DNA of 64,000 nucleotides. It comes from an uncultured Candidatus Actinomarina sp. GTDB taxonomy: Bacteria; Actinomycetota; Acidimicrobiia; Actinomarinales; Actinomarinaceae. The notes under the pieces are model-generated. The model had not been told where the DNA came from, made no database searches, and saw nothing but the letters and a program-made list of their open reading frames with translations. Shown in pieces: positions 38,357 to 54,150 of the stretch. A program made the position numbers and the translations under genes. Location: assembly GCA_902634185.1 (NCBI GenBank), contig CACPJC010000004.1, positions 1-64,000 of the forward strand, read 5' to 3'. Positions within the stretch are counted from its first letter, which is position 1. Each line of letters begins with the position of its first letter.

Positions 38357-39241
38357 ATGAAAATCGAATCAACTTTTAAAATAAAAAAAGGTTTAGCTGA
38401 AATGCTAAAAGGTGGCGTGATAATGGACGTCGTCAATGCAGAACAAGCAGTTATAGCCGAAAAATCAGGTGCCGTAGCTGTTATGGCATTAGAGAGAATT
38501 CCTGCTGATATTCGTGCAGAAGGTGGCGTTGCAAGGATGTCGTCAGTTGAGACAATTCAAGAAGTAATAGATTCAGTATCAATACCAGTTATGGCAAAAG
38601 CTCGTATTGGACATTTTGTTGAAGCGCAAATGTTAGAATCCCTAGGGATTGACTTTATTGATGAAAGTGAAGTTTTAACACCAGCCGATGATAAAAATCA
38701 TATCTATAAACATGATATAAAGACTCCATTTGTTAATGGTGCAACTGACATCGGTGAAGCATGCAGGAGAATTGGTGAGGGTGCAGCTATGATTCGAACT
38801 AAAGGTGAAGCTGGCACTGGGAACGTTATTGAAGCTGTAAAGCATATGAGAAGTATGACAGATGGTATAAATAAAATTAAAACATCTGATCAAAATGAAT
38901 TGATGTCATTGGCAAAAGAAATAAGAGCACCATTTGATGTCGTTAAAGAGATTCATGAGCTTGGTAAACTGCCAGTAGTTAATTTTGCCGCTGGAGGTAT
39001 AGCAACACCTGCTGATGCAGCATTGATGATGCAACTCGGGTGTGATGGTGTATTTGTTGGATCGGGTATTTTTAAAAGCGGTGATCCAAAAGAAAGAGCA
39101 GAAGCAATTGTAATTGCAACAACAAACTACAACGATCCAGAAAAACTCATAGAAGTTTCTAAAAACCTTGGTGAACCAATGGTAGGAATAAATATAGATG
39201 ATTTAGATGAAGCGGAGAAATTAGCTAAAAGAGGTTGGTAA
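38357..39241 (+). CDS. pdxS: PLP synthase subunit PdxS
   Basis: [33 protein letters not shown]. Confidence 0.97.
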
Positions 39242-39819
39242 TGAAAACTGGTGTTTTAGCACTTCAAGGTTCCTTTTACGATCACGTACAATCTTTAGAA
39301 TTTATTGATCAAGATTATGTTTTAATTAAAGATACTTCAGATCTATCTCATGTAAATTCTTTAATTCTTCCTGGTGGAGAATCTACATCCATGATAAAAA
39401 TTCAAGAAAATAATGATTTATTTTCTGAATTAAAGAAATTAATAGAAAGTGGTATTCCAACATTGGGAACATGTGCTGGTCTGATTCTATTAGCAAAAGA
39501 CGTAATTGATGGTGAAACCTCATTGGGAGTTTTAAATACAGTCGTTGAAAGAAATGCATACGGGCGTCAGAATCAATCATTTGAGGGACTCGTTAATTTG
39601 CTAGATAATAAAGAAATGTATTGTTTCATAAGAGCTCCCAAAATTCTATCTTATGAAGATTCAGTATCCCCAATAGCAACAATTGATAATGAAGTTGTCG
39701 GCGTAATAGAAAATAATGTTGTTGGTCTCTCTTTTCATCCGGAATTAACCAATGATAAAGTTTATTTAGATTGGCTAAGTAGTTTCCTAAAGGACGGTGT
39801 AAATGTCAGGTCACTCTAA
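39241..39819 (+). CDS. pdxT: PLP synthase glutaminase subunit
   Basis: LALQG, PGGEST, GTCAG, RNAYGRQ, FHPE. Confidence 0.95.
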   Translation: MKTGVLALQGSFYDHVQSLEFIDQDYVLIKDTSDLSHVNSLILPGGESTSMIKIQENNDLFSELKKLIESGIPTLGTCAGLILLAKDVIDGETSLGVLNTVVERNAYGRQNQSFEGLVNLLDNKEMYCFIRAPKILSYEDSVSPIATIDNEVVGVIENNVVGLSFHPELTNDKVYLDWLSSFLKDGVNVRSL

Positions 39820-40546
39820 GTGGTCAACGATAAAAAGAAAAAAAGGTGCAAATGATGCTAAAAGAGGAAAATTATTTGCCAAACTTATTAGAGGTATCGA
39901 GGTTGCAGCCAAGAATGGTGGTGCTGATCCAAATAATAATGCTGCACTTTATCAAGCAATTAGTAAAGCAAAATCAAATTCAGTACCCAATTCAAATATT
40001 GACAATGCATTAAAGAGAATGTCAGGTGATTCATCAACTGAATCATTTGATGAGATTACTTATGAAGGTTACGGACCAAATGGAGTTGCAATATTAGTTG
40101 AATGCGTTACTGACAATAGAAATAGAACTTCATCAGATGTAAAAGCTACTTTTAATAAATATGAGGGAAATACCGGTTCTCCTGGAAGTGTTAATTACTT
40201 ATTCACAAGAAAAGCAATATTTCAATTTGATGAATATAAAGAAGAGATAATAGATCTTGCAATAGATAATAATTGTATTGATATTCAAGAAAATGAAACC
40301 GGTGTTACATTTGAATTTCAACCTTCTGAATTTCAGAAAGTAGATCAATTATTTAGAAATTCAGGTTTTAATTTAGTAAATTCGGAGGTTGCTTATTTAC
40401 CATCCAGTTCTGTAAATTTAGATATAGAAAAATTTAACAGACTGTCAAAGTTGATAGAAGCATTAGAAGATCTAGATGACGTTCAGAATGTATATGCAAA
40501 TTTTGATATTGATAACAAACTATTAGAAAAAGCAATAACAGAATAA
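39803..40546 (+). CDS. yebC: YebC/PmpR family protein
   Basis: MSGHSKWSTIKRKK, YEGYGP, TDNRNRT, LEDLDDVQNV. Confidence 0.95.
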   Translation: MSGHSKWSTIKRKKGANDAKRGKLFAKLIRGIEVAAKNGGADPNNNAALYQAISKAKSNSVPNSNIDNALKRMSGDSSTESFDEITYEGYGPNGVAILVECVTDNRNRTSSDVKATFNKYEGNTGSPGSVNYLFTRKAIFQFDEYKEEIIDLAIDNNCIDIQENETGVTFEFQPSEFQKVDQLFRNSGFNLVNSEVAYLPSSSVNLDIEKFNRLSKLIEALEDLDDVQNVYANFDIDNKLLEKAITE

Positions 40547-40565
40547 TTTTAGCTACAATTATTGT

Positions 40566-40919
40566 GTGGTTAATAAAGCTAAAAAACAGGGAACTACATA
40601 CGAATCAAATATCGTAAAAAGATTGAATGAAAATTCAAATATGAAAGCTCAACGTTTTGCTGAAGGTGGCTCTAATGATTTGGGTGACATACAATTGTTT
40701 GTTGACGGAGAAGAGTATTTTATTGAAGCAAAATCTCGACAAAATCTAAATTTACATCAGTCACTAGGTAAAGCAATTGAAAAGTCTAGCGATGAAAATA
40801 CTGTCTTATTTTGGAAAAAACTGAAGAGACAGGGTGACAACAAGAGACGTACAAATGATGGAATGCCAGAAGTTGTGTCAATGTCATACGAACTTTTTAT
40901 TAAGCTTTTAAACAAGTAA
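40566..40919 (+). CDS. Hjc-type (phage/archaeal) PD-(D/E)xK Holliday junction resolvase-like nuclease
   Basis: KKQGTTYE (G..E), DLGDI, FIEAK, LFWKK. Confidence 0.72.
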   Translation: MVNKAKKQGTTYESNIVKRLNENSNMKAQRFAEGGSNDLGDIQLFVDGEEYFIEAKSRQNLNLHQSLGKAIEKSSDENTVLFWKKLKRQGDNKRRTNDGMPEVVSMSYELFIKLLNK

Positions 40920-41930
40920 TTGAACAAAACCCATATTTCTGATTTAGATTATCATTTACCAAAATCATCGATAGCCCAAGATCCATACAAAAATCCAGAG
41001 GATTCAAAAATTCTTGATGCAGAAAGTATGAAAATTCATAAATTTGAAAATATAGATAATGTAATTCCAAAACGATCATTACTTGTTTTTAATAATTCTC
41101 AAGTTAAAGATGTTCGAGTCAAAACAATTAAAAAACATACTCTCGGAAACGTTGAAATATTCATACTTAAGATAGTTGATGAATATTCTGCAGATTGTTT
41201 ACTTAAATTTAATGGAAAAAAGAATATTGGAGAAGAAATTGAACTTGAAAAATTCTCAATACATATTATCAAAAATGTAAACGATCAATTCAGAGTAAAA
41301 TTTTCTTTACCCATAGAACAAATAATCAGCAATTATGGATCCACTCCTTTACCACCATACATTGATGATATGGAATATAAATATAACCACTACAAGACTT
41401 TTTTTAGTGTGAAAGGATTTTCAGTGGCTGCATCTACAGCTGCTCTTCATTTTACTCCAAATTTATTTCAACAGCTTGAAAATAATGATATTGATATAAG
41501 TTTCCTTAATCTTGATATCGGCCTCGGTACCTTCAAACCGATTAGTACTGACTACGTAGAAGATTATGATATACATTCTGAAGATTATGAGATTAATAAA
41601 TCAACTTACCATGAAATAATTGCCAAAAAAAACAAGGGATATAATATTGTTTGTGTTGGTACGACAACATTGAGAACTTTAGAGCATGTATATAAAACTT
41701 CTACTTTTAAAGGGAAAACAAATTTATTTATAACAAAAGGATTCAAATTTAATGTTGCTGACTATCTAATAACAAATTTTCATGCTCCTAAGAGCTCTTT
41801 ACTTTCAATTGTTCAAACTATTTATGGCGATTCTTGGAAAAAACTTTATGCTTTTGCTTTAGAAAATAACATGAAGTTCCTAAGTTTTGGTGATGCAGTA
41901 ATGTTTAAAGTAAAAAACAATGGCATATAA
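40920..41930 (+). CDS. queA: S-adenosylmethionine:tRNA ribosyltransferase-isomerase
   Basis: DYHLP..IAQ, PLPPYI, SVAASTAALHF, VGTTTLRTLE, TNFHAPKS, SFGDA. Confidence 0.92.
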   Translation: MNKTHISDLDYHLPKSSIAQDPYKNPEDSKILDAESMKIHKFENIDNVIPKRSLLVFNNSQVKDVRVKTIKKHTLGNVEIFILKIVDEYSADCLLKFNGKKNIGEEIELEKFSIHIIKNVNDQFRVKFSLPIEQIISNYGSTPLPPYIDDMEYKYNHYKTFFSVKGFSVAASTAALHFTPNLFQQLENNDIDISFLNLDIGLGTFKPISTDYVEDYDIHSEDYEINKSTYHEIIAKKNKGYNIVCVGTTTLRTLEHVYKTSTFKGKTNLFITKGFKFNVADYLITNFHAPKSSLLSIVQTIYGDSWKKLYAFALENNMKFLSFGDAVMFKVKNNGI

Positions 41931-42996
41931 ATTAATTTCAAATGACAAAAATGCTCGTGCTGGGATACTTTCTATAAATAATATTGAAGTACAGACTCCT
42001 ACATTTATGCCTGTTGCTACAAGAGGTGCAATCAAATCTACTCCTCATCAATACCTAGATAAGACCTCAATACTTCTAGCAAATGCATATCATCTTCATC
42101 TAAGACCTGGTGCGGAGTTAATAAACGATTTAGGTGGATTACATAAATTTATGAACTGGAATAAATTAATACTTACTGACTCTGGAGGTTTTCAAGCATG
42201 GTCATTACCAACCAAATTATTAGATGATGGTATTGAATTTAAAAATGTATATGATGGATCCTTTTTTAAAATGACTCCTGAAGATTCAATCAATACACAA
42301 AATCTTTTAGGGAGTGATATTGCAATGATATTTGATTATTTAATTGATTATGACAAATCAGATGGTGATCAAATGAAAGCAATTAATATAACAAGTAAGT
42401 GGGCTGAAAAAGCAAAAAGTGTGCATAAAAACAATAAACAAGAGTTGTTTGGCATTGTTCAAGGAGGTTTAAATCTTGATTTAAGAGAAACTTCAGCAAA
42501 ATCAATGATCGAATTAGATTTTGACGGATATGCAATTGGGGGATTAGCAATCGGCGAATCAAGTACTGAAAGAAAAAAGGTCGTAGAACATTTAAATTCA
42601 ATACTTCCAATAGATAAACCAAGATATGTTATGGGTTTAGGAGACACCGTAGGTTTAATTGATTTGATTGATTCTGGTGTTGACATGTTTGATTGTGTTT
42701 GGCCTGCAAGACTTGCAAGGCATGGTAAATTAATAACTCGTAATTCATACATCAATATAAAAAATCAAAAATTTAAGAATGATGAAAATCCTATAGATAA
42801 TAATTGCAAATGCTTTACGTGTTTAAATTATTCAAAAGCTTACTTACGTCACCTTTTTACAAATGAAAATACAACTTCTTGGTTATATTTAACTGTACAT
42901 AATATAATTCAAACAGAACAAATTATTGAAGAAGCTAGAGAAAGTATATTAAACTCAAGTTTTGAAAGTTTTAAAAAGGAATTTATAAATGAGTGA
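41920..42996 (+). CDS. tgt: tRNA-guanine transglycosylase
   Basis: TPTFMPV, TDSGGFQ, GIVQGG, DMFDCV, CxCxxC zinc site. Confidence 0.95.
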   Translation: MAYKLISNDKNARAGILSINNIEVQTPTFMPVATRGAIKSTPHQYLDKTSILLANAYHLHLRPGAELINDLGGLHKFMNWNKLILTDSGGFQAWSLPTKLLDDGIEFKNVYDGSFFKMTPEDSINTQNLLGSDIAMIFDYLIDYDKSDGDQMKAINITSKWAEKAKSVHKNNKQELFGIVQGGLNLDLRETSAKSMIELDFDGYAIGGLAIGESSTERKKVVEHLNSILPIDKPRYVMGLGDTVGLIDLIDSGVDMFDCVWPARLARHGKLITRNSYINIKNQKFKNDENPIDNNCKCFTCLNYSKAYLRHLFTNENTTSWLYLTVHNIIQTEQIIEEARESILNSSFESFKKEFINE

Positions 42997-43240
42997 CATA
43001 GTATCTTTATTGCCCTTAGTTTTTGTATTTGTAGTATTTTATGCAGTTTTATACTTACCTCAACGAAGACGAAATAAAAAACACAAAGAATTTGTTGAAA
43101 ACTTAAAAATCGGTGAGGATGTAATTACAGATTCAGGTATTTATGGGAGAGTTACCTCTATTAGTGATGATACAGTTACATTAGTTCTCAAAAATGGTGA
43201 AATAAAAATTAAAACATCATTTATTAACAGTATTTCATGA
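42989..43240 (+). CDS. yajC: Preprotein translocase subunit YajC
   Basis: TM helix, PQRRR, GEDVITDSGIYG. Confidence 0.88.
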   Translation: MSDIVSLLPLVFVFVVFYAVLYLPQRRRNKKHKEFVENLKIGEDVITDSGIYGRVTSISDDTVTLVLKNGEIKIKTSFINSIS

Positions 43241-44682
43241 GACGAACCTTTAAATTTCTTTTTCTACCTATCCTTGCTATTGGTTTATTTATATATGTTT
43301 ATCAATCATCTTTATCACCAAAACTTGGATTAGATTTACAAGGTGGAATCTCAGTAATACTTACAGCTGATCAGGATACTGATCCAGAAGTTTTAGAGAA
43401 GTCTGTTGAAATAATGAGAACAAGAATTGAAGCATTTGGTGACGTACAAGAACCAGAAATATCTATAAGTGGAAATAATGCTGTACTTGTTCAGCTTCCT
43501 GGCGTTACAGATCAAGAACGCGCAATTGAAGCCCTGGGAGCTACTGGCTTATTGACTTTTAGACCAGTACTAGCTTCCTCTTTTGATACTGGATATTCAC
43601 CTGCTTTTGAATATCTTCCAAATCCAGATGACCCTGAAAATCCTATTAAAGTTTCAGCACCTGGTGTTGATGAAGAAATTGGAATAACTTTAGATGATAA
43701 TCCAAATACTGAATCATACCTTTTATCTATAACATCAAGTTACCCTGTAATTTATAAATTAGGCCCAGCAGTCTTAACTGGTAATGATATTGAAGATGCA
43801 ATTGCAGCATATCCTGAGAATGAATGGATAGTTTCATTAGAATTTAAAGACTCTTCAGCAGTTAAATTTACAGATTTAACAAAACAATTAGCAAGAGAAT
43901 CTGGTGATAAAAGAAGACTAGCTATTGTCTTAGATGGTGAAATAGTATCTGCACCAGGAATAGCTTTAGACGTCAATCCTGATATTGGAATAACAGGTGG
44001 AACAGCAGCAATATCAATGGGAAATACGGATACAGGGGAATCAGCAAATAATCTTGCTGTAATTTTGAGATATGGCGCATTGCCAGTATCGTTTGAAAGA
44101 TCATCCATTCAGAAAGTTTCCGCAAGTTTAGGAGAGGACACATTAAATCTTGGGTTACAAGCCGGATTAATTGGTCTAATTATTATTTCGATAATAATTA
44201 TCCTTTATTACCGTTTTCTTGGTTTCATATCCGTATTTGGTTTATCAATGTTTGGACTCTTGTTTTATTCAGTAATTTCAGTTTTAGGCAATTTACAAGG
44301 GTTCACATTGACACTTGCAGGTATTGCTGGAATTATTGTTTCAATTGGTTTAGCTGCGGACTCTTATATTGTTACTTTTGAAAAACTAAAAGATGAAATT
44401 AAAGTTGGAAGATCTTTCGAATTTGCAGCTAATAAAGCTGTAGATGAATCATGGAAGACAATATTAACAGCTGATTTCGTTTCATTGTCTGCAGCCTTTT
44501 TACTTTATATCTTAGCTGTAGGACCAATACGTGGTTTTGCATTAGCACTTGGTATTGCAACAATTTTTGATTTATTGTTCACTCGTCTTTATACAAGAAA
44601 TGTTGTACCAATTGTTATATCAAGAATTAAAAATACTAGATTTTTGTTTCCAATTAAAAACAAGGATATAACCAATGTTTAA
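43237..44682 (+). CDS. secD: Protein translocase subunit SecD
   Basis: LGLDLQGG, VQLPG, AIVLDG, GALP, LTLAGIAG. Confidence 0.93.
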   Translation: MRRTFKFLFLPILAIGLFIYVYQSSLSPKLGLDLQGGISVILTADQDTDPEVLEKSVEIMRTRIEAFGDVQEPEISISGNNAVLVQLPGVTDQERAIEALGATGLLTFRPVLASSFDTGYSPAFEYLPNPDDPENPIKVSAPGVDEEIGITLDDNPNTESYLLSITSSYPVIYKLGPAVLTGNDIEDAIAAYPENEWIVSLEFKDSSAVKFTDLTKQLARESGDKRRLAIVLDGEIVSAPGIALDVNPDIGITGGTAAISMGNTDTGESANNLAVILRYGALPVSFERSSIQKVSASLGEDTLNLGLQAGLIGLIIISIIIILYYRFLGFISVFGLSMFGLLFYSVISVLGNLQGFTLTLAGIAGIIVSIGLAADSYIVTFEKLKDEIKVGRSFEFAANKAVDESWKTILTADFVSLSAAFLLYILAVGPIRGFALALGIATIFDLLFTRLYTRNVVPIVISRIKNTRFLFPIKNKDITNV

Positions 44683-45580
44683 AAACTTATTTCTAGGCAA
44701 TACAAATATCGATTTTTACAATAAACGTAACTTGCTTCAGAAAATATTTATTGTTGAAATAGTTATATTTCTAACAGTATTGATATGTGCAGCTATTGGT
44801 ATATTAAATTTGAATTTTTCAATTGATTTTACAGGTGGTACAACATATCAATTAACAAGTGAGTATTCAAAATCTGATATAGATGAAGTACTAACTAACA
44901 ACATATTAGAAGTTTCAAGATATCAAACATATGAAAATTCAGATACTGTTTTATTCAGGGCTGTTGAGGGATCACAATCCCAAGAAACTGAATTCTTAAA
45001 TTATCTTGCAAATAAGTTTAATGTCAACAGTAATGAAATCGAGTTCCAACGTGTAGGACCAACATTTGGACAAGAAATTACAACTAAGGGAATTAGAGCG
45101 CTAGTAATATTTTTATCCTTTATAGTTTTATTGATATCAATTAGATTTCAGTTTAGGTTTTCTATAGTTGCTCTAATTGCTTTGATTCATGATCTTTTAA
45201 TTTGTACAACGATTTATTTATTATTGAATTTTGAAATAACACCATCCACAGTTATTGCACTTTTAACTATTCTTGGTTATTCACTTTACGATACGGTGAT
45301 ACTTTTTGATAAATTAAGAGATAGTCAAAGAATGAATAAAGAAAGTAATTTATCTATAAAAACTTTAAACAAAACGTTTAATGAGATCTTAATGAGAAGT
45401 ATCAATACATCAATTACATCAGCTGTGCCAATAGCTTCTATATTGTTTCTCGGTAATATAATTGGTTTATCTGGAACTCTAACCGATTTTGCTTTACCTC
45501 TATTTATTGGAATAATATCTGGTACGTACAGCTCAATATTTGTAACTATTCCATTTTTATCAAGGATAATTAATAAATAA
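44675..45580 (+). CDS. secF: Protein translocase subunit SecF
   Basis: IDFTGG, VGPTFG, HD, GYSLYDT, RSINTS, GTYSSIF. Confidence 0.93.
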   Translation: MFKNLFLGNTNIDFYNKRNLLQKIFIVEIVIFLTVLICAAIGILNLNFSIDFTGGTTYQLTSEYSKSDIDEVLTNNILEVSRYQTYENSDTVLFRAVEGSQSQETEFLNYLANKFNVNSNEIEFQRVGPTFGQEITTKGIRALVIFLSFIVLLISIRFQFRFSIVALIALIHDLLICTTIYLLLNFEITPSTVIALLTILGYSLYDTVILFDKLRDSQRMNKESNLSIKTLNKTFNEILMRSINTSITSAVPIASILFLGNIIGLSGTLTDFALPLFIGIISGTYSSIFVTIPFLSRIINK

Positions 45581-45601
45581 AAAAACTAGTACCATTAATT
45601 T

Positions 45602-47761
45602 ATGGTTAAAAATCTTGATTTACTTGATGCAGATGAGCTTATTAACAACCTGTATTCTAAATTTAAAAATGATGAAGAAATACTAAAAAAAGCATATTTA
45701 TATGCGTCCGAAGGTCATTTAAATCAAAAAAGAGCTTCTGGAGAACCATATATCACTCATCCTTTACAGGTTGCTACCTATTTAGCTGATTTAAGTATGG
45801 ATATTGAAACAGTTGTATCAGCTATTTTGCATGATTTAATTGAAGATACAGATGTTACTTTTAAAGATATAAAAAAAGAATTTGGAAGTGACATAGCAAA
45901 TATAGTAGATGGTGTAACAAAATTAGATAAAATCCAATATAACTCAAATGAGGAAGCTCAGGCAGATGCAATAAGAAAAATGGTTATTGCTATGTCCAAA
46001 GATATAAGAGTTTTAATATTAAAACTTGCAGATAGACTCCACAACATACAAACTATTCAGTATTTAGCAGATTACAAACAAGAAAAAATAGCTAATGAAA
46101 CATTATATGTGTATGCTCCACTCGCACATAGGTTAGGGCTTCAAAATATAAAACACATACTTGAAGATATATCATTTAGTTTGATATTTAAAAATCAAAA
46201 TTCTGAAATAGAAAATTTAATTGAGAAAACTGCTCCTGATAGAGACAAAAATATAAATAAGTCATTAAAGGTAATTGAAGATCTTTTGTCTGCGAATTCT
46301 TTATCTGCAGAAGTTGTTGGAAGACCAAAACATAATTATTCGATATACAAAAAAATTATCAATAATGGTTTAACGTTTAATGAAATAAATGATCTCATCG
46401 GTCTCAGAATTTTAACTGATGATGTAAAAAATTGTTATACAATTCTTGGTTTAATCCACGCAAACTTTCAACCAGTACTTGGTAGATTCAAAGACTTTAT
46501 TTCAATGCCAAAATTTAATCTTTACCAGAGCTTACATACAACAGTTCTAACGGAAACAGGTCAAAAAATGGAGATACAGATAAGAACTCACGATATGCAC
46601 TATAGAGCTGAATATGGAGTAGCTGCTCATTGGAAATATAAAGAAAAGCCACAAAATGATACACAACAATGGACAAATGCATTATCGGAATTGTCAGATG
46701 AATATCCTGATCCGAATGAATTTCTAAGTCATATGAAATTAGATCTTTATGAAGATGAAGTATTTTGTTTAACACCAAAGGGAGACGTAATTACCTTACC
46801 TCAGGGGGCAACACCTGTTGATTTTGCTTTTTCAGTTCATACTCAAGTAGGAGAAAAATTAATTGGTGCAAAAATCAACGGTAAATTAGTAAATTTAAGT
46901 ACAAGGCTATCTACTGGTGATACAGTCGAGGTGCTAACAACAAATGAAAAAAATAAAGGACCAAGTCGTGACTGGTTAACATTTGTAAAGACCTCAAGAG
47001 CACGTTCTAAAATTAAGCAATGGTATCAAAAACAACTTAAGGATGAAGATATACAAAAAGGTAAGCAGATATTAAATTCCTGGTTAGAAGAAAATGATGA
47101 GATTTTTAACTATTCAAGTAAAGATAATATTTTGAATGAACTTTTAAACATTCTTAAATATCCAAATATTGAAACGATTTATCAAAATTTAGGTAATGGA
47201 AACATAAAAATAAATAATGTTGGAAACAAAATCAGAAAATTTGTATTTCCTGAAGAAATTTCTGAGGAAGAGGATATTCTATCACCAGATAAATATCAAA
47301 CAAATGATGATCAGCTTGTAATAGTAGAAGGATATGATGATATAAAAGTAAGGATGGCAAGATGTTGCGTTCCTGTTCCTGGCGATGATATATTAGGTTT
47401 CATTACGATATCAAATGGAATATCAATTCATAGATCTGATTGTCTGAACATTAAGATAGATAGCTCCAAAGGTGAAAGAATAATTGATGTTTCATGGGGA
47501 TTCAATGCACAGACTGGATCAATTGTTTGGTTAGAAATAGAAGCTATTGATAGACCTTACTTACTAAGAGATGCAACAATAGCAATATCAGACAATGGTG
47601 GCAATATCCTTGTTGCAAAATCACTTACTAATAGCAAGAGAATAGTGACTTTATTATTCCAAGTTGAAATAAGTGGAAATGAACAACTTGATTCAATAAT
47701 TAGAGATGCTAAAAATATAGAAAATGTTTTCGACGTTCAACGAGCAAATCCAGGAAACTAA
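45602..47761 (+). CDS. relA: Bifunctional (p)ppGpp synthetase/hydrolase Rel
   Basis: GEPYITHP, intact HD motif (LHDLIED), KLADRLHN, YQSLHT, EIQIRT, TGS and ACT domains. Confidence 0.95.
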   Translation: MVKNLDLLDADELINNLYSKFKNDEEILKKAYLYASEGHLNQKRASGEPYITHPLQVATYLADLSMDIETVVSAILHDLIEDTDVTFKDIKKEFGSDIANIVDGVTKLDKIQYNSNEEAQADAIRKMVIAMSKDIRVLILKLADRLHNIQTIQYLADYKQEKIANETLYVYAPLAHRLGLQNIKHILEDISFSLIFKNQNSEIENLIEKTAPDRDKNINKSLKVIEDLLSANSLSAEVVGRPKHNYSIYKKIINNGLTFNEINDLIGLRILTDDVKNCYTILGLIHANFQPVLGRFKDFISMPKFNLYQSLHTTVLTETGQKMEIQIRTHDMHYRAEYGVAAHWKYKEKPQNDTQQWTNALSELSDEYPDPNEFLSHMKLDLYEDEVFCLTPKGDVITLPQGATPVDFAFSVHTQVGEKLIGAKINGKLVNLSTRLSTGDTVEVLTTNEKNKGPSRDWLTFVKTSRARSKIKQWYQKQLKDEDIQKGKQILNSWLEENDEIFNYSSKDNILNELLNILKYPNIETIYQNLGNGNIKINNVGNKIRKFVFPEEISEEEDILSPDKYQTNDDQLVIVEGYDDIKVRMARCCVPVPGDDILGFITISNGISIHRSDCLNIKIDSSKGERIIDVSWGFNAQTGSIVWLEIEAIDRPYLLRDATIAISDNGGNILVAKSLTNSKRIVTLLFQVEISGNEQLDSIIRDAKNIENVFDVQRANPGN

Positions 47762-53776: not shown

Positions 53777-54150
53777 AAAACATAATAGCTATAGATTATG
53801 GTGAACGTTACGTTGGTCTTGCATTAAAAAAACAATCAATAAATTCGGCTTATGCATATAAAGTCCTGGATAGTAAATCTTTGGATGTTTTAGATGAAAT
53901 TAAACAATCATTAATTGATCACGAAATAGATGAGATTGTAATTGGTTATCCAATAGGATTAAATTCTCATCAAACACGTATGAGTAAAGTGGTAGATGAA
54001 TTTATTGAAAATGATCTAAAATCTATAACAACTATTCCAATACATAAAGTTGATGAACGAATGACTTCAAAGTTAACAAATGATAAAACAATAAGAAATG
54101 ATGACTTAGCAGCATTAGAAATACTAAATTCACATTTAAAAAATGATTAA
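53773..54150 (+). CDS. yqgF: YqgF/RuvX pre-16S rRNA nuclease
   Basis: AIDYGERYVGLA, IGYP, VDERMTS, DDLAA; follows alaS. Confidence 0.9.
   Translation: MKNIIAIDYGERYVGLALKKQSINSAYAYKVLDSKSLDVLDEIKQSLIDHEIDEIVIGYPIGLNSHQTRMSKVVDEFIENDLKSITTIPIHKVDERMTSKLTNDKTIRNDDLAALEILNSHLKND

Follow-up and report, generated by a model that had tools for sequence, protein, structure and literature searches.

The RuvABC system is regarded as close to universal among bacteria, so much so that its genes are used as markers in estimates of genome completeness. In Firmicutes, RuvC alone is replaced, by the nuclease RecU, and organisms with RecU keep RuvAB. In Escherichia coli, RusA, a resolvase of prophage origin, can take the place of the Ruv system only when RecG is present. 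An archaeal Hjc resolvase restores repair in E. coli cells that lack RuvC, according to the available portion of PMC10956419. Here we describe a locus of an uncultured Candidatus Actinomarina sp. (order Actinomarinales, class Acidimicrobiia) in which a single small gene lies in the place of ruvC, ruvA and ruvB. The window, by which we mean the whole stretch of DNA that was analyzed, is 64,000 nucleotides (nt) long (contig CACPJC010000004.1 of GenBank assembly GCA_902634185.1, positions 1 to 64,000 of the forward strand). The gene (40566..40919, + strand) is an open reading frame (ORF) of 117 amino acids (aa) with a GTG start that encodes an Hjc-like nuclease of the PHROG 244 / PDDEXK_15 type, a candidate Holliday-junction resolvase. 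Our data indicate that in the Actinomarinales this single nuclease replaces ruvC-ruvA-ruvB at their ancestral place.

The replacement is evident from the interval between yebC and queA, which is made up of ruvCAB in two outgroups and of the nuclease gene alone in all 20 Actinomarinales loci examined, each with the order yebC-nuclease-queA and both neighbors adjacent. In the window the upstream anchor of the slot is yebC (39803..40546, + strand; TACO1/YebC family, PF01709 at 5.9e-48 and PF20772 at 1.6e-29), which ends 19 nt before the nuclease gene, and the downstream anchor is queA (40920..41930, + strand; PF02547 at 7.5e-86). No ruvC, ruvA or ruvB lies between them. For comparison we used four genomes from other families of the class. 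Two of these (G039 and G040) have the order pdxS-pdxT-yebC-ruvC-ruvA-ruvB-queA-tgt-yajC-secD-secF-relA, and a third (G036) has the same order minus queA-tgt. The fourth (G049) runs from ruvC-ruvA-ruvB-queA onward and has no yebC within 5 kb upstream. Hence yebC was found 5' of ruvC in three of the four outgroup loci, and queA directly 3' of ruvB also in three of four. A first-pass annotation of this DNA, made from the sequence, had reported yebC followed by one 117-aa gene and then queA without ruvABC, and the ORF listing and Pfam agree with it. It had also given yebC-ruvC-ruvA-ruvB-(queA-tgt)-yajC-secD-secF as the actinobacterial order, which is the order seen in two of the outgroups, and had pointed out that an intact ruvABC elsewhere in the genome would speak against its inference.

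Profile searches revealed no such genes. The assembly from which the window comes (G000; the window is its contig C4) is 974 kb long with 32.6% G+C, is divided into 16 contigs and has an estimated completeness of 83%. No match to RuvC (PF02075) or RuvA_N (PF01330) was found anywhere in these 974 kb of an 83% complete genome. Three matches to RuvB_N were obtained and were rejected as RuvB, as they are DnaX, ClpX and FtsH. Across 34 Actinomarinales genomes, RuvC (PF02075) was found in none, versus 24 of 24 outgroups of the class; RuvB (TIGR00635, over its cut-off) likewise in 0/34 versus 23/24; and RuvA_N (PF01330) in 0/34 versus 23/24. The one outgroup in which RuvA and RuvB were missing is split into 330 contigs. 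Among the 34 genomes are a single-contig genome of 1.0 Mb (G008) and several assemblies of 5-10 contigs, and most of the relatives are 60-90% complete.

By sequence the nuclease belongs to PHROG 244. Its match to this family has an E-value of 1e-11 and spans residues 1-116, while no NCBIfam model matched it and neither did the Pfam profiles for RuvC (PF02075), RusA (PF05866) or RecU (PF03838). An exhaustive search of 1.84 billion cluster representatives returned 211 relatives at E <= 0.001. The top-scoring representative (P0121, 6424 aa, matched over 41 weak stretches) is a repeat protein rich in T, D, N and S, and we rejected it as a compositional false positive and not a fusion of the nuclease. 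An alignment of 66 full-length members of the family has a mean column identity of 36%, and PHROG 244 was matched by 66 of the 66, whereas at E <= 0.01 PF24608 was matched by 10 and PF01870 by two. Within this alignment T10 and D41 are invariant; conservation reaches at least 90% at K6, G9, E13, R30, E33, G35, D38, G40, E54, K73, W83 and G99; and K56 is the consensus residue. The putative active site consists of E13, D41, E54 and K56. They fall within the motifs that the first-pass annotation had picked out (K..G..YE, GD and IEAK), which are present as K6/K7, G9 and Y12-E13, as G40-D41 and as I53-E54-A55-K56.

Comparison of the family with proteins of known structure pointed to the Hjc-type resolvases. 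When the family profile was searched against all Protein Data Bank (PDB) sequences, the seven best distinct matches were all Hjc-type resolvases (E 3.4e-4 to 2.7e-3), and the profile alignment sets E13, R30, D41, E54 and K56 opposite E, R, D, E and K in Sulfolobus solfataricus Hjc. In Pyrococcus furiosus Hjc the essential residues are E9, R10, R25, D33, E46, K48 and K81, as listed in PMC10956419. K73 of the nuclease is a candidate counterpart of K81.

The AlphaFold2 model is confident (pLDDT 93.7, pTM 0.85) and has the alpha-beta-beta-beta-alpha-beta arrangement of the PD-(D/E)xK core, with helices at residues 4-21 and 63-74 and strands at 26-30, 42-46, 49-57 and 79-84. Helix 1 of the model carries E13 and strand 3 carries E54-A-K56, while D41 sits immediately ahead of strand 2. 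Foldseek placed Hjc/Hje first (E 8e-4, TM ~0.5), and alignment of the model with VIA-align gave P. furiosus Hjc (1gef_B) at Z 9.1, with a root-mean-square deviation (rmsd) of 3.3 A over 93 residues, the six best chains all being Hjc/Hje. A search of 48,161 chains that was independent of Foldseek ranked Hjc 1gef at Z 8.5, Hjc 2wcw at 7.8 and Hje 1ob8 at 7.8, with Hjc the only chain at Z >= 8; the RecU structure 1y1o reached only 5.5. The top structural matches were all PD-(D/E)xK proteins. The predicted fold fixes the superfamily and favors Hjc within it, and does not prove function. A PD-(D/E)xK fold, on which the first-pass annotation had made its reading depend, was upheld by the model and the structural searches, with Hjc on top. 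The label "Hjc" itself, which the first-pass annotation had used, holds in part: distant homology is supported by the profile matches to the PDB and by the fold, while membership in the Pfam family is not, PF01870 giving no match.

Several lines of evidence link the nuclease to phages. Three viral contigs encode full-length relatives that are 44-46% identical to it, and on these contigs the relatives adjoin genes for a primase, an exonuclease and a replication initiator. One of the three (L052 / L057) is a genome rated complete, of 47.6 kb and 34.6% G+C, in which there is also a gene for WhiB, a protein that typically marks phages of actinobacteria. The product of this gene is 68% identical to a WhiB of the genome studied here (G000), and we regard the 47.6-kb viral genome as a candidate Actinomarinales phage. 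The cluster of one relative includes a protein whose name refers to an uncultured Mediterranean phage, the sole organism name among 20 representatives looked up, and the nearest large clusters in the ESM Atlas are 80-100% viral. When relatives were ranked with a profile built without Actinomarinales sequences, none of the best 120 was on a contig longer than 41.4 kb; Actinomarinales copies are on contigs of up to 324 kb. Among cultured phages the nuclease matches only five Microbacterium phages, and these over its first 43 residues. One of them, phage Caron, has a gene product (gp47) named "Holliday junction resolvase" that is 53% identical over those residues and adjoins a primase/helicase. 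Two distant members of the family (P0134 and P0154) were also searched against cultured phages by tblastn, with nothing found at E <= 1e-5. Structural matches in the BFVD had TM scores of 0.6-0.7. The phage-type origin that had been proposed from the sequence is supported by the PHROG 244 matches (66/66), the viral contigs and the viral nearest clusters.

The 11 Actinomarinales sequences among the 79 of a phylogenetic tree grouped into one clade (SH-aLRT 97). The simplest reading is that the gene was captured from a phage once, at the base of the order, and has since descended vertically. The direction of transfer, from phage to host, is inferred from the distribution of the family and is not shown by the tree, because the tree does not settle which phage group is sister to the Actinomarinales clade.

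Of 62 Actinomarinales genomes searched with the family profile, 53 have the nuclease, with both genera represented, and among them are 11 of the 11 order genomes that are at least 90% complete. Together with the 20 loci described above, this agrees with the first-pass annotation, which had made its reading depend on conservation at this locus in relatives. Outside the order there were two weak matches in 365 other genomes of the class, and at the level of the phylum four weak matches in 400 genomes; one of these four comes from a genome marked as unpublished and carries no weight here. Across the genus, the nuclease is 80-99% identical at the protein level, compared with 62-99% for yebC and 46-99% for queA. 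The median pairwise nonsynonymous divergence (dN) among seven diverged representatives was 0.113 for the nuclease, 0.252 for yebC and 0.45 for queA. We report dN and no dN/dS ratio because synonymous divergence (dS) was saturated (>1). The nuclease evolves more slowly than either of its neighbors.

Two copies of the gene are split into two frames, one in the single-contig genome (G008:C1:630000-640000, locus L062) and one in G029 (G029:C10:28000-33000, locus L063), and we considered whether these might be pseudogenes. This was rejected, since neighboring housekeeping genes are split too: in G008 secD, secF and yebC, as well as the nuclease gene, are each in two frames, and in G029 yajC is split along with it. 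The split frames therefore look like assembly frameshifts and not decay.

We searched for other recombination genes in the five best genomes (G000, G008, G009, G010 and G026). RusA, RecU and, at E <= 1, the Pfam Hjc family were each found in none of the five. RadA/Sms (TIGR00416) over its cut-off was likewise found in 0/5, the weak matches listed including the RecA gene, and the lineage appears to have lost RadA besides RuvABC. RecA, LexA and RuvX/YqgF were present in all five. A second, shorter LexA-like gene was also seen (G000:C5:28285-28728), with equivalents in four relatives beside the true lexA. Its frame of 176 aa scored 108 bits against the LexA cut-off of 111, the match covering the C-terminal two thirds only, and it could encode an S24-peptidase or a UmuD-like protein.

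RecG was found in four of the five genomes, the exception being the assembly studied here. In this assembly one end of contig C13 (at about position 3-167) breaks inside a large gene that corresponds to an 899-aa frame in the close relative G010, and the block of >13 kb that holds recG in G010 has no counterpart. Because the contig ends inside the block that flanks recG and the whole >13 kb is gone, we read the absence of recG here as a probable assembly gap and not as a loss.

Taking these data together, we think it likely that the 117-aa protein is a domesticated phage resolvase that works with RecG and is the junction resolvase of the lineage, which supports the replacement of RuvABC by a single phage-type resolvase that the first-pass annotation had put forward. 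The wider proposition is more tentative, and we would put it at slightly less than an even chance: that in this free-living order the whole of late homologous recombination proceeds without RuvA, RuvB, RuvC and RadA, by means of a phage-derived Hjc-like nuclease and RecG. The main genome study of the order inferred homologous recombination at the top end for bacteria, and the accessible text of that study does not mention ruv, resolvases or Holliday junctions (PMC7771536). With homologous recombination this strong, some way to deal with junctions is needed. We hypothesize that a phage of marine low-GC actinobacteria was the source of the nuclease, which would have been fixed at the base of the Actinomarinales in the former ruvC-ruvA-ruvB interval. 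By analogy with Hjc, the protein may act as a homodimer, each subunit of which would form a metal site from E13 (in helix 1), D41 (at the start of strand 2) and E54-x-K56 (in strand 3). The dimer would bind a four-way junction and make two paired nicks, again as Hjc would suggest, and the nicked duplex products could then be sealed by DNA ligase. Branch migration and fork remodeling would be left to RecG; we assign branch migration to it because RuvAB and RadA were not found. The late recombination machinery would then consist of RecA, RecG and the nuclease. In this scheme, dimerization, junction specificity and the partnership with RecG are inferred.

Several observations weigh against this interpretation. 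The match of the nuclease to PF24608, "phage putative PDDEXK endonuclease" (PDDEXK_15), has an E-value of 9e-5 and a score of 22.9 bits, below the cut-off of 27, and PF01870 (Hjc) is matched at E <= 1 neither by the nuclease nor by any protein of the five genomes. Sequence likeness to Hjc is limited to the N-terminal ~60 residues, and R10, one of the essential residues of P. furiosus Hjc, corresponds to S14 in the nuclease and to a consensus T in its family. In the structural search, the homing endonuclease-type chain I-Ssp6803I (Z 7.4) and SwaI (Z 7.3) followed closely, so that the lead of Hjc over unrelated PD-(D/E)xK nucleases is ~1 Z unit; fold by itself is insufficient to assign function. 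The failure of the tree to settle the sister group of the Actinomarinales clade bears on the account of origin in the same way. Lastly, junctions could be cleaved by RuvX, which all five genomes encode.

The explanation that competes best with a junction resolvase is that the protein is a PD-(D/E)xK nuclease with some other role on DNA, such as the processing of flaps, forks or damaged DNA, or that it is a non-catalytic binder. Junctions would then be removed by RecG reversal, by RuvX or by other means, and the slot would reflect operon context only. The PD-(D/E)xK fold does span many functions, as the closeness of homing and restriction endonucleases to Hjc in the structural search illustrates, and RuvX is on hand in 5/5 genomes. 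The mycobacterial RuvX processes branched DNA, as stated in the portion of PMC11466669 available, and UPF0102, a different Hjc-like protein of bacteria, bound DNA and had no nuclease activity in vitro in what is accessible of PMC10140301. However, the residues of the putative active site are kept at a mean column identity of only 36%, with E13, D41 and E54 invariant or at least 90% conserved and K56 the consensus. In addition, every annotated relative lies in a phage replication/recombination module and is named a junction resolvase. It is also hard to see as coincidence that the exact ruvCAB interval was replaced in a lineage with no other known resolvase left. We therefore consider this explanation unlikely, though it deserves more weight than those that follow.

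A second alternative is that RuvX (YqgF) is the real junction resolvase, and that the nuclease is a phage gene retained for conflict with phages, for example to cut branched intermediates of phage replication. The ruvX/yqgF gene lies in the same window (53779..54138, + strand, on contig C4 of G000; PF03652, E 4e-20) and is the sole other resolvase-family name found in the lineage. Its retention in all five genomes is what this alternative would predict, as is the finding that relatives of the nuclease are mostly on contigs of phage size (none of the best 120 on one >41.4 kb). However, RuvX is near-universal in bacteria that keep RuvC, as in 10 of 14 control genomes, and having it is therefore no explanation for a loss of RuvABC. 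Moreover, the nuclease gene is inside a housekeeping operon, and not in an island, in every informative genome; its dN is below that of its housekeeping neighbors; and no defense-type neighbors were seen. These observations make the alternative quite improbable.

That ruvABC only seems to be absent because metagenome-assembled and single-cell genomes are incomplete, with the nuclease an unrelated insertion, might be argued from the 83% completeness of this 16-contig assembly, the 60-90% completeness of most relatives and a recG that is missing here only through an assembly gap, but this is scarcely credible when RuvA, RuvB and RuvC are absent from 34 of 34 genomes, the single-contig 1.0-Mb genome and the 5-10-contig assemblies among them, when the slot is contiguous and filled by the nuclease in 20/20 loci, and when the single-contig genome itself is only 87% "complete", as fits markers missing throughout the lineage. 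The 87% score of that genome (G008) fits marker sets that count genes this order lacks, possibly the ruv genes, and completeness figures for the Actinomarinales would then be underestimates.

The GTG start of the nuclease gene is supported by the relatives, which have GTG (6/20 loci) or ATG (14/20) at the same codon, and by the N-termini of homologues, which line up as M-(V)-N/S-K-x-K-x-Q-G-T. The stop codon, TAA, is at 40917-40919, and the queA frame (TTG at 40920) begins at the next base. In relatives the nuclease gene and the queA match are 3 to ~40 nt apart, and the true start of queA is uncertain. The conserved block downstream comprises tgt, yajC, secD, secF and relA (41920..47761, + strand; identified as ORFs, with Pfam for tgt), in the same order as in outgroup loci L058-L061. 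Upstream, pdxS and pdxT (38357..39819, + strand; ORFs) form a block with the same order 5' of yebC as in outgroup loci L058-L060.

The nuclease gene may have a promoter of its own. A -10-like hexamer, TACAAT (40554..40559, + strand), is located 6 nt before the GTG, as the first-pass annotation had pointed out, and is a putative promoter for a leaderless transcript. Among 20 loci of relatives, 18 have a box of the form TA[ACT]A[AT]T at a distance of 6 nt from the start codon and the other two have it at 8 nt, and the box is kept though the surrounding sequence varies between groups. The background frequency of this pattern in the genome is 0.0049 per position, a figure that does not convert to a probability as the loci are related. 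The conserved -10-like box is consistent with a leaderless promoter. Contigs from three seawater metatranscriptome runs, from three studies, cover the nuclease gene with 0-1 mismatches. Contigs from the RNA libraries also bridge the junction with yebC (40508-40660 and 40411-40622) and that with queA (40601-40980). This evidence consists of assembled contigs, from which strand, 5' ends and true transcription cannot be read. The nuclease gene is probably expressed, and read-through from yebC is possible.

If our interpretation is correct, it would change the notion of the minimal kit for recombination in bacteria, and also how the quality of genomes of the Actinomarinales type is judged. The Actinomarinales are a whole, very abundant marine order of tiny bacteria, and they would do without RuvABC while showing strong signs of homologous recombination, as reported in the portion of PMC7771536 consulted. 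The locus would, moreover, give a clear example from nature of how a gene of phage origin can be domesticated for core housekeeping, and it offers a resolvase candidate of 117 residues for direct testing at the bench. We found no paper on loss of ruv or on a resolvase in Actinomarinales or Actinomarina; the search covered papers and not the supplements of genome papers, whose gene tables could list the absence.

Of the described systems, the archaeal Hjc and Hje resolvases (PF01870; 1gef, 2wcw, 1hh1, 4tkd, 2eo0 and 1ob8) are the closest in structure. They are 120-143 aa long, compared with 117 aa for the nuclease, and share the same PD-(D/E)xK core, and their catalytic E, D and E-x-K and one arginine have equivalents in it. 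They differ in that the C-terminal half of the nuclease has conserved residues of its own (K73, W83 and G99) and in that the nuclease family has S or T as the second member of the E-R pair. The nuclease is also bacterial and phage-borne, with no PCNA-type partner known. The phage "Holliday junction resolvases" of PHROG 244 / PF24608, such as Caron gp47, are its direct sequence family. In contrast to these, the Actinomarinales gene is chromosomal, single-copy, vertically inherited and part of a housekeeping operon, and is more constrained than its neighbors. PHROGs labels PHROG 244 "RusA-like", yet the nuclease has no match to RusA (PF05866). The Hjc of Thermus thermophilus phage 15-6 (7bgs and 7bnx) is likewise a phage-encoded resolvase of the Hjc type (profile E 1.3e-3; Z 6.8, rmsd 3.1 A over 88 residues), but it has 163 aa, is a weaker match than archaeal Hjc and is a viral and not a cellular gene.

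As substitutions for Ruv proteins, the nearest parallels are the two with which we began. RecU in Firmicutes is similar in that a different nuclease fold takes over the cutting of junctions, whereas in the Actinomarinales RuvA and RuvB are gone as well. In the E. coli rus suppressors, in which RusA acts with RecG, a prophage resolvase stands in for the whole Ruv system and is paired with RecG in the way we propose for the Actinomarinales. That suppression, however, is the state of a laboratory mutant, while in the Actinomarinales, which are free-living, the replacement has become fixed in nature. What sets the present case apart is that an order of free-living bacteria has lost all of RuvABC, and RadA too, and has a nuclease of a phage family fixed in the vacated slot.

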